This document shows positions 30,001 through 33,000 of a stretch of 61,566 nucleotides of DNA, one piece after another. Origin of the DNA: Escherichia phage P13771; the sequence record HG792104; one strand, 5' to 3'. The first letter of the stretch is position 1. The number at the start of each line of letters is the position of its first letter. The position numbers were made by a program.

Positions 30001-33000
30001 TTGCGTCAACTATAACGGAAATCGTTATGGTTGCTGAGGATGGGAAACGACGCAATATGGTGTCCCTGCCGCTTCGAAAACTTGCAGGCTGGTTACAAAC
30101 CATCAATCCCAACAAAGTAAAACCCGAAATCCGCGGCAAGGTAATCCAGTATCAGGAAGAGTGTGACGATGTTCTCTATGAATACTGGACGAAGGGTTTT
30201 GTCGTTAATCCCCGTCGAATGAGTGTGATGGAAGAACTCAATCAGGCTTGCGCTGACATGAAACGGGATAAAAACATTGCCAGTGTGTTTGCTACCGGGC
30301 TGAATGAGTGGAAACAGGTTAAATCCGCGCATGTATCAAAAATCCGCACATTGATAAACGAAGCGAATCTGCTGATTGATTTTGTCCTGGCTGATACAGG
30401 CAAAGGGAAAATAACAAAGGCGGATTGATGGAGTGGTGGCTAATGATATCGGATAAACTCATAACGCTGGCGAAGATCCTCTGTGTAATCGTCGGCATTT
30501 CATTTTTAGTCATGCTGGTTGCCATTTTCTTTTCCACCGCCTGGCGAGTCCTGACGTTATCGGGACTGGTGGGGTGAAAGAGAGATGAACCGTGTTCTGT
30601 GTGTGGTGATTATTGTCCTGCTGGTAGCCTGTGGTGCGCTTAGTCTGGGGCTGAATCATTACCGCGATAACGCCATAACCTACAAAGAGCAGCGCGATAA
30701 AAAAGTCAGTGAGCTGGAGCTGGCAAATGCAACCATTACTGATATGCAGCAGCGCCAGCGTGATGTTGCTGCACTTGATGCCAGATACTCGAGGGAATTA
30801 GCCGATGCGAGAGCTGAAAATGAAACTCTTCGCGCTGACGTTGCCGCTGGTTACCGCAGCCTGCGGATCAACGCCACCTGTCCAGGTCCCGTGCGTGAAG
30901 CCACCGGCACCGCCCGCGTGGATAATGCAACCGGCCCCCGACTGGCAGACACCGCTGAACGGGATTATTTCACCCTCAGAGAGAGGCTGATCACTATGCA
31001 AAAACAACTGGAAGGAACCCAGAAGTATATTAATGAGCAGTGCAGATAGAGTTGCCCATATCGATGGGCAACTCATGCAATTATTGTGAGCAATACACCC
31101 GCGCTTCCAGCGGAGTATAAATGCCTAAAGTAATAAAACCGAGCAATCCATTTACGAATGTTTGCTGGGTTTCTGTTTTAACAACATTTTCTGTGCCGCC
31201 ACAAATTTTGGCTGCATCGACAGTTTTCTTCTGCCCAATTCCAGAAACGAAGAAATGATGGGTGATGGTTTCCTTTGGTGCTACTGCTGTCTGTTTGTTT
31301 TGAACAGTAAACGTCTGTTGAGCACATCCTGTAATAAGCAGGGCCAGCGCAGTAGCGAGTAGCATTTTTTTCATGGTGTTATTCCCGATGCTTTTTGAAG
31401 TTCGCAGAATCGTATGTGTAGAAAATTAAACAAACCCTAAACAATGAGTTGAAATTTCATATTGTTAATATTTATTAATGTATGTCAGGTGCGATGAATC
31501 GTCATTGTATTCCCGGATTAACTATGTCCACAGCCCTGACGGGGAACTTCTCTGCGGGAGTGTGCGGGGATAATCAAAAACGATGCACACCGGGTTTTCT
31601 CATTTTTCACGAGATGGGAGCGATTTCCCGCGAAGCCGCCTGTCCGGTGCGGTGGTGGAAGAAACCGGATAAAACAACCGCATTGTGCAAATATCGATCA
31701 AATATGGTGCTGCTGTGTGAAATCTGAAAAATCACAGCGGTCATTATGCATCAGTTTTTAACACAGGACGTCAGAACGTGACATGGCAAAGCTGGACTGG
31801 AAAAAGCTGGAGCAGGCATTCCGACGCGAACATGCCGAAACGGGAATAACATTACTGGACTGGTGCCGGAAGAAAAAGATTAATTACAACACCGCCAGAA
31901 CCCGTATAAAAATGGGCAAAATCGATCATGAAATTGATCATAAAACCGATCATGAAATCGATCATGACATCTCAGATGAAGAACCCTGCAATGACGCGGG
32001 TTCCGGCGATGAAAAATGCGCAAAAAACTCTGAAAAAAACTGCGCAAATTCGGCAGAAACGAAACGGATTCGTGGTTCCCGACTTTTACCACCTTCAAAC
32101 GCTTTTTCTCAGCGAAACACCCACGCCGTAAGACACCGTGGATATGCGAAGTATCTTGAGGCAGATAACCTCATGGATGATGCGTCCGACATGGTGCTGT
32201 TCGATGAACTGGTGTTCACCCGGGCCCGCGCACTTTCAGTAACTAAGGCACTTAAAGGGATGTTCGCCGACCTGGAAGAGGCAACTGACGTGGAAACCCG
32301 TGTTGCTCTTTACGACAAAATACTCAAAGCTGAACAGGCCCTTGACCGGAATATTGCCCGTATCGAGTCAATTGAACGCTCATTGCTGACGCTGGACGTC
32401 CTGGCTGAGACAGCACCAAAACTTCGTGCTGACCGGGAAAGAATCAACGCCGCCAGAGATAAACTCAGAGCTGAAACCGATATTCTGACCAACCAGCGTC
32501 GGGGCGTTGTTACGCCTGTCAGTGACATCGTGTCATCGCTGCATGAAATGAGTAATTCGGGGAGACTGGATGACATTCCGGAAGAATGAACCGCGATGTG
32601 ATGAGCCGTCAGAAATGACCGAGGCTGAACAACGTCTGTTCATCATGACTAAACTGAGCAATCCCTGGTGGCGGCTCAATCATCTCTACAAAATACAGAA
32701 CGAAAAAGGTGAACTGGTCACCTTCAGAATGCGACCGGCGCAGCGCCAGTTGTTCCGGAGCATGCACAATAAAAATATTATCCTGAAAGCGCGCCAGCTG
32801 GGATTTTCCACAGCCATTGATATTTATCTTCTCGACCAGGCATTATTCATTCCGCATCTCAAATGCGGGATCGTCGCTCAGGATAAACAGGCTGCCAGTG
32901 AAATTTTCCGCACAAAAATTGCTGTACCGTTTGATCATCTCCCTGACTGGCTGAGAGCCTCATTCACCATCGTTGAACGTCGTAGCGGTGCCAGCGGTGG

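Follow-up and report, generated by a model that had tools for sequence, protein, structure and literature searches.

The small terminase gene (terS) of Escherichia phage P13771 (sequence record HG792104) contains four 12-bp units in tandem within its coding sequence, and each unit holds a GATC site. Whether this repeat serves the small terminase subunit (TerS) that it encodes, or is a signal in the DNA that happens to be translated, is the question raised by this locus. The window studied here, the whole stretch of 61,566 nucleotides (nt), is that of a 933W/Sp5-type Shiga-toxin-converting podophage. Generalized transduction by phage 933W is efficient and its virion DNA is apparently terminally redundant; the name "pacase" has been proposed for its terminase, and no packaging (pac) site was identified (PMC3752737). 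The large terminase subunit (TerL) of this type is classed among those of headful packagers (PMC6029569). Because of the generalized transduction, the apparent terminal redundancy and this grouping of TerL, a pac site is to be expected in the phage. Literature searches found no mapped pac site of a Shiga toxin (Stx) phage and no paper describing the GATC array, and the homologues of TerS included no characterized pac phage with a TerS of the 933W family, only Stx phages and uncharacterized phages of Klebsiella and Aeromonas.

We suggest herein that the repeat is probably a cis-acting recognition array for TerS, that is, a pac element resembling that of phage P1, embedded in terS and possibly gated by Dam methylation. 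From the comparisons described below, we assign this explanation a probability of about 0.68; TerS binding, the position of cleavage and control by methylation are what we infer from them. The family-wide pattern of hexamer arrays on which the explanation draws appears not to have been described before.

A phased GATC array inside terS

The terS gene (31783..32589; 807 bp, 268 amino acids (aa); L0112 in 933W) was taken from the list of open reading frames (ORFs) and lies on the plus strand, as do all features of terS given below. Its product belongs to the PHROG family phrog_370, "terminase small subunit" (E=5e-125). The gene is 100% identical to that of phage PA28 at the DNA level, and the product is 100% identical to the 933W/VT2-Sakai protein, which is annotated as the small terminase.

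The repeat, proposed here as the TerS recognition arm of the pac site, occupies 31921..31968 (codons 47-62, with codon 47 beginning at 31921). Its units, ATCGATCATGAA, ATTGATCATAAA, ACCGATCATGAA and ATCGATCATGAC, are read as IDHE, IDHK, TDHE and IDHD, and the initial annotation, which had described an in-frame 12-bp repeat in four copies, was exact in both coordinates and translation. Every unit contains a Y-GATCA hexamer (Y denotes C or T), namely CGATCA at 31923-31928, TGATCA at 31935-31940, CGATCA at 31947-31952 and CGATCA at 31959-31964, and GATCAT recurs in all of them. The four Dam sites (GATC) are phased at 12 bp. CGATCA is the reverse complement of TGATCG, so that the array fits the hexamer type TGATC(A/G), each copy with a GATC. 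Tandem Repeats Finder (TRF) delimits the repeat as 31919-31971, with a period of 12, 4.4 copies, 82% matches and a score of 78.

This array exceeds chance. GATC is scarce throughout the window (172 observed vs about 239 expected), and the array, with four GATC per 48 bp, forms its densest GATC cluster; four GATC within any 48 bp were reached in only nine of 200 dinucleotide shuffles. GATCAT was found four times in the 200-nt linker-coding segment, where 0.05 copies would be expected (Poisson 3e-7). The cluster is a single one, and the next GATC after it lies at 32869.

Conservation of the hexamer rather than the peptide

For homologues of TerS with identities as low as about 35%, the DNA at the position of the array was inspected. 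A short tandem motif is present in every lineage right after the part that codes for the N-terminal helix-turn-helix (HTH) domain, and the peptides that it encodes differ: IDHE in the 933W type, SD(Q/H)K in Salmonella, SQIR in Pectobacterium, GTQ/VRK in a Klebsiella phage, and (S/N/T)AQ(K/S) in other E. coli, Citrobacter, Serratia, Yersinia, Aeromonas and Xenorhabdus. The initial annotation had called such a repeat unusual in a packaging protein; a repeat of four residues and 12 nt at this place is instead the norm in the TerS family and in pacases related to PacA of phage P1.

Within the GATC lineage, the DNA is held fixed where the protein is not. A Salmonella homologue at 59% aa identity keeps Y-GATCA in the register of the window, with exchanges between His and Gln and altered neighbouring residues. 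Three Salmonella genes (L006, L078 and L079) and one of E. coli (L080) have Y-GATCA at gene nt 141/153/165(/177/189), the register of the window; the GATC itself falls at 142/154/166(/178/190) in the Salmonella genes vs 142/154/166/178 in the window. Across this lineage, Asp is followed by Gln or His (CAA, CAT or CAC) and preceded by Ile, Thr, Ser or Asn, the codon before it always ending in a pyrimidine (AGT, AAC and AAT in Salmonella). The Asp codon itself is GAT in all nine cases (9/9), vs 55% elsewhere.

The same tendency is seen in lineages with other hexamers. In 32 loci from Escherichia, Citrobacter, Salmonella, Serratia, Yersinia, Brenneria, Pectobacterium, Aeromonas and Xenorhabdus, one hexamer occurs three to seven times in the 200 nt after the HTH-coding part, where the remainder of each locus would predict 0.04-0.18 copies (Poisson mostly 1e-7 to 1e-14). 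Copies of TGCGCA (n=142) are translated in all three frames (x-Ala-Gln, Val/Met/Leu-Arg-x and Cys-Ala) and yield at least 20 different peptides. Ala followed by Gln or His is encoded by GCG in 107 of 115 cases, vs 23% in the remainder of these genes (p=1.5e-50); T is the last base of the codon before this Ala in 104 of the 115. Across lineages, neither the spacing nor the reading frame of the hexamers is constant. Because the hexamer is invariant while peptide, frame and neighbours vary and synonymous sites are locked, the constraint sits on the DNA and not on the peptide; an explanation at the level of the peptide, or a purely neutral one, would not account for this pattern of codons and hexamers.

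These comparisons bear directly on the suggestion, made in the initial annotation, that the repeat binds metal. In favour of an Asp/His-rich metal site, or of some other functional protein motif in the linker of TerS, His and Asp are classical metal ligands and the in-frame repeat belongs to an exposed linker. However, His is replaced freely by Gln (SDQK and SDHK alternate), the flanking residue may be Ile, Thr, Ser or Asn while the hexamer stays the same, and the AQK-, SQIR- and GTQ-type repeats of most lineages have neither His nor Asp. Moreover, up to three reading frames are used for the same hexamer, its synonymous positions are locked, the segment is predicted to be disordered, and variants of one to seven units exist. 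A function of the peptide is thus very improbable, and the metal-binding proposal was abandoned.

Likeness to the pac site of phage P1

The pac site of P1 is a 161-bp element of the form HEX4, integration host factor (IHF)/cleavage region, HEX3, and is regulated by Dam (Sternberg & Coulby; Skorupski et al., as summarised in PMC10028697). The P1 record annotates the cleavage sites within pacA; four TGATCA stand to their left and a TGATC(G/A) cluster to their right, and in-frame translation of the hexamers gives Asp-His or Asp-Gln (MIIDHSNDQHAGDH). Synonymous mutation of these hexamers lowered packaging about 9-fold (PMC10028697).

The array in terS resembles this site in several ways. In both, the coding sequence of the DNA-recognition subunit harbours TGATC(A/G) hexamers with Dam sites just 3' of related N-terminal HTH domains; in both, the translation is Asp-His or Asp-Gln, and an arm has four hexamers. 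The spacing differs, being irregular in P1 (7, 12 and 15 nt) and strictly 12 bp in the window. The N-terminal HTH domain of TerS appears, from profile and sequence matches, to be distantly homologous to that of PacA. PacA belongs to phrog_1711 (E=4e-202) and also matches phrog_370 (2e-4), and TerS of the window matches phrog_1711 in turn (3e-5). The two N-termini align over 43 columns with hhalign (E about 1e-4, probability 58%), and BLASTP gives E=0.009. The C-terminal parts are unrelated, and PacA is longer (397 aa).

Relatives of PacA resemble the window further. In one with 70% aa identity to PacA (L132), the TGATCA hexamers stand at unchanged places in the gene while the peptide has been rewritten, and its unit, AGTGATCATAAAAAT, nearly equals ATTGATCATAAAACC of the window. 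Four PacA-like genes of other phages or phage-plasmids in IMG/VR (L241, L157, L209 and L224), which are uncharacterized metagenomic sequences, have one main array after the HTH, as in the window, with five to six TGATCA at an exact spacing of 12 nt, read as xxDH or xxDQ. Unlike TerS, their products are 424-437 aa long and PacA-like throughout (E 1e-24 to 1e-31); only the N-terminal domain is related. In an arbitrary sample of viral loci with at least three phased Y-GATCA, 15 of 118 lay inside ORFs of the TerS/PacA family.

Other phages provide less specific parallels. In lambda, the R1-R3 repeats of cosB are bound by the winged HTH of gpNu1, and an IHF site is also present. Like the array, cosB thus has short repeats read by the N-terminal HTH of a small subunit beside a cut site. 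Unlike the array, it belongs to a cos mechanism, is intergenic and non-coding, and involves another protein family and motif. P22 and Sf6 have a 22-bp asymmetric pac site in gene 3, and SPP1 has pacL and pacR boxes; as with the array, the recognition site of these headful packagers lies within or at the small terminase gene (PMC9611059). In contrast to the array, the P22 site is single and asymmetric, and in P22 and SPP1 the TerS folds and families differ and no methylation site is involved.

Copy number and the possibility of slippage

A variable number of units, as anticipated in the initial annotation, was indeed found: relatives have one, two, three, four, five or seven, with four strongly modal. 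Stx2_PV11-77 has three units. Database proteins include forms with one, two, five and seven, and the DNA of the seven-unit form was confirmed (L009); the one-, two- and seven-unit forms are single records from short contigs. Among IMG/VR contigs, 37 of 38 have four units and the remaining one has five, and a scan of IMG/VR for variants with one to three units found none. Complete E. coli genome records with the segment (n=387) have four units in about 350 cases and three in 17.

Such variation would suit a repeat without function, tolerated by a disordered linker and changing in copy number by replication slippage. In addition to the range of one to seven units and the predicted disorder, many unrelated viral ORFs contain phased GATCA in simple tandem repeats. 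Nonetheless, slippage leaves unexplained why a hexamer array stands in the same place across lineages at 35-60% identity, why its spacings are irregular and its frames differ, and why its codons are locked (p=1.5e-50); nor does it explain why, in P1, experiments placed the pac site in an array of this very design within the homologous pacA gene (PMC10028697). A purely neutral origin therefore seems quite unlikely to us, and a recognition array remains the preferred explanation.

A separate observation concerns shortened (43-51 kb) Stx2a prophages, in which an element of the insertion sequence family IS3 interrupts terS a few bases after a three-unit array and the remainder of the gene is lost. 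This arrangement was seen at 3170-4450 of LC727841.1 (Stx2a_JNE121849; L002) and in five siblings (H76-H80), the element having two transposase ORFs on the opposite strand. The loss of homology inside unit 4 of these Stx2a_JNE phages had been considered a mosaic junction; this was rejected, since it reflects the IS3-family insertion in degraded prophages.

Domain layout of TerS and a possible mechanism

An AlphaFold2 model of TerS, built on 27 homologues, has the layout of a small terminase: an N-terminal domain, a flexible linker and a helical C-terminal domain. The N-terminal three-helix, HTH-like domain comprises residues 6-41 (31798..31905), with helices at 6-20, 24-30 and 35-41 and a predicted local distance difference test score (pLDDT) of 75-87; it is presumed to be the reader of the hexamers. 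Residues 48-116 (31924..32130) form a linker predicted to be disordered (pLDDT <50, about 33). The repeat (residues 47-62) opens this linker directly after helix 3, and the modelled domain boundaries thereby bear out the placement of the repeat in the linker by the initial annotation. A linker of this kind would be expected to tolerate embedded DNA elements. Two long C-terminal helices (127-166 and 170-238) span residues 127-238 (32161..32496; pLDDT about 95); they are the most conserved part of the homologue alignment and presumably serve in oligomerization. A Foldseek search of the whole model against the PDB returned coiled-coil noise with no match at E<=0.001, and no solved TerS fold was assignable.

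Further elements flank the array. Immediately upstream lies a degenerate hexamer, TGGGCA (31913..31918), read as part of Met-Gly-Lys; at this place, the codon layouts of relatives (L006 and L007) have CTGCGCAAA (Leu-Arg-Lys). Downstream, a 48-bp spacer that encodes an acidic stretch, ISDEEPCNDAGSGDEK (31969..32016), separates the GATC array from a pair of TGCGCAAA hexamers within 32017..32046 (32017-32022 and 32041-32046), both read as Cys-Ala and located about 50 bp downstream of the array. By its likeness to P1 we infer that the spacer could be a candidate zone for the initiating cut. TGCGCAAA occurs three times in the window, two of these being the copies at 32017 and 32041, and the pair is kept in an E. 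coli homologue with AQK-type repeats (L007). It may represent a second arm, or a relic of a TGCGCA-type ancestor.

According to the pac explanation, TerS would oligomerize through its C-terminal helices and present several N-terminal HTH domains on flexible linkers. These domains would engage successive hexamers, and possibly also the two TGCGCAAA elements. TerL, presumed to be the nuclease and motor that would cut near the array, would then be recruited and make the initiating cut nearby, from which headful packaging would proceed. Every hexamer holds a Dam site, and by likeness to P1, methylation of the array may therefore govern initiation. The peptide IDHE-IDHK-TDHE-IDHD would be a by-product of a site that must be translated, in a linker that tolerates almost any sequence.

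Two minor features of the locus may be mentioned here. A second, weaker 12-nt periodic stretch in terS lies at 32005-32046 (TGCGCAAAAAAC / TCTGAAAAAAAC / TGCGCAAATTCG, read as CAKN, SEKN and CANS); it includes the two TGCGCAAA hexamers and is also variable in length, with two or three CAKN units in relatives and three in P0018. A lone CGATCA at 31695-31700 precedes the start of terS by 87 nt; the seven-unit relative shares it, whereas the Salmonella and AQK-type genes have none upstream.

Association of the presumed reader with its site

The type of the N-terminal domain goes with the type of hexamer. (S/T)ARRY domains pair with TGCGCA, and NTART(R/Q) domains with Y-GATCA. SAKRY domains pair with TTCGCA in a Pectobacterium lineage and in Klebsiella RothD, and a distinct GVTEGAIRKRAKK-type domain pairs with GTACGCA in Klebsiella ST16-OXA48phi5.2. 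In sliding comparisons with the E. coli AQK-type gene L007, identity is 90-100% on either side of 31817..32119 and drops to 40-80% inside this mosaic segment, which comprises HTH helices 2-3 and the linker as well as the hexamer arrays. At 31857-31974, the window resembles the Salmonella GATC-type gene L006 more than L007. In comparison with phages that are otherwise near-identical, HTH and array are swapped jointly, as one cassette.

A stricter "helix-3 code" (ARRY with TGCGCA, ART[RQ] with GATC, and AKRY with TTCGCA) had held in the first 32 loci examined. It was broken by the L168/L146 lineage and by P1, in which ARRYL goes with TGATCA, and was rejected as a code but retained as a weak association.

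The L168 lineage deserves a comment of its own. It consists of seven IMG/VR members of the TerS family (L168, L146, L148, L170, L178, L216 and L244) of about 281 aa with an HTH of the form ..NTARRYLQV.., and its array of four to five TGATCA, read as VISESDQFTDHVTDQ, stands far along the linker, at residues about 100-116. The position of the array within the linker is therefore not fixed.

A broader proposal is possible, which we put forward only tentatively and consider less probable than its opposite: the TerS family and the PacA pacases would carry a portable cassette of an HTH and its cognate array, swaps of which re-address packaging, and the 933W/Sp5 phages would have gained the GATC version and, with it, Dam-gated packaging and generalized or lateral transduction, with gating as in P1. 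Should the cassette proposal be true, the series TGCGCA, TTCGCA, GTACGCA and Y-GATCA would constitute a tractable system for the reading of DNA by small terminases.

Dam methylation and possible other roles of the DNA or RNA

A cluster of Dam sites could also serve a task other than packaging. Four GATC about one helical turn apart have a spacing favoured by proteins that bind hemimethylated GATC, and the array might thus be a site for SeqA or for another host or phage factor (acting, e.g., in late-gene or replication timing), or have a reader other than TerS. Host Dam was moreover reported to be necessary for stable lysogeny of 933W (Murphy et al. 2008, as cited in PMC3342100). On the other hand, the hexamers of most members of the family (TGCGCA, TTCGCA and GTACGCA) lack GATC, and a function common to the family can therefore not depend on Dam or SeqA. 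A scan of 31400-32300 for promoters and terminators found nothing at the array, and the position after a DNA-binding domain matches that of P1 pac. We regard a different role at the DNA level as unlikely, though not negligibly so.

Which enzyme would methylate the array is a related matter. The relative Phi24B was reported to encode a "putative Dam methyltransferase" (PMC3342100), and no Dam domain was found in ten mid-genome ORFs of the window. A motif scan for methylases of the window returned only two, neither of which allows GATC specificity to be deduced: an N6-adenine DNA methyltransferase of the MT-A70 family (2925..3551, minus strand, 208 aa; PF05063, E=1.3e-22, DPPW motif) and a methylase belonging to a PstI-type restriction-modification system. 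Whatever their targets, the array would be methylated by host Dam.

The latter methylase has a partner. A BsuBI/PstI-type restriction endonuclease (15156-16109, minus strand; PF06616 and PF17728) adjoins an Eco57I-like N6-adenine methylase with an NPPY motif (16106-17575, minus strand), so that both halves of a type II restriction-modification system (15156-17575) are carried in the early region of this Stx phage.

The array could, finally, act in the terS mRNA, where self-complementary hexamers would form hairpins that regulate translation or stability. Neighbouring hexamers can indeed pair into small hairpins in the predicted fold, but the folding energy is ordinary (z = -1.45; 15 of 200 shuffles fold as well), the repeat has no Rfam match, and TTCGCA and GTACGCA are arrayed alike without being palindromic. 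Of all the explanations considered, this one strikes us as the least credible.

Points against a pac array

Several observations weigh against the pac explanation. P1 pac has two GATC arms that flank the cut, whereas the window has one such arm and two TGCGCAAA. P1 pac includes an IHF site; no match to the IHF consensus, WATCAANNNNTTR, was found near terS, the only two in the window lying at 5033 and 6903, although a consensus scan is a weak test. A BLASTP comparison of TerL with PacB of P1 gave no significant match. PhageTerm analysis of Lys19259Vzw, whose terS is identical, gave a "Mu-like" pattern without a pac peak (PMC7946995). The pairing of helix 3 with the hexamer is a weak association, with few independent switches and with reader and site physically linked. 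Units within one array are not independent, as they arise by tandem duplication. The modal copy number of four may reflect recent ancestry rather than selection, as 933W-type sequences are 95-100% identical. The MT-A70 enzyme is a possible trans-acting modifier of the array, and its sequence does not permit a GATC specificity to be deduced.

The 933W/Sp5-type phages spread Shiga toxin genes. With a 48-bp pac candidate that has a precedent in P1, the starting point of packaging, its dependence on Dam and the cross-packaging of co-resident Stx prophages that differ in their cassettes become testable. Recognition of DNA by TerS is still called unclear and controversial (PMC9611059), and a multi-copy array beside its presumed reader, with several natural variants of specificity, may provide a useful model for it. 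The arrays of the TerS family would also give a simple rule by which pac sites could be predicted from sequence.

Gene neighbours and other features of the window

terS is immediately upstream of terL, and its 3' end overlaps the terL start. terL (32570..34276, plus strand, 568 aa) matches the large terminase families phrog_2 and phrog_24361, and is followed by a P22-type portal gene (34276..36420, plus strand; PF16510 P22_portal, E=1.4e-128). The order terS-terL-portal is as for the small terminase of a headful phage.

Elsewhere in the window, TRF detected a perfect 9-bp tandem repeat, GCTGCACTG, in five copies at 2480-2524 (100% matches, score 90). Tandem repeats of 45 and 63 bp at 42914-43139 have a Gly-X-Y-like coding pattern (GGACCAGCAGGCCCGGCAGGACCA...), which suggests a collagen-like segment in a gene of the tail-fibre region. 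Rfam matches in the early region include three copies of sRNA-Xcc1, a small RNA family associated with integrons and mobile elements (65-80 bits; 4705-4790, 5240-5329 and 13536-13619, minus strand), and a C4 antisense RNA with isrK at 14455-14642, adjoining a Rha/Ash-like gene. Three tRNA genes lie at 24146-24394, just upstream of a 319-aa ORF (24488-25447), and are followed by STnc100 (25803-26008, plus strand) and the "anti-stx2" RNA AsxR (26010-26062, minus strand).

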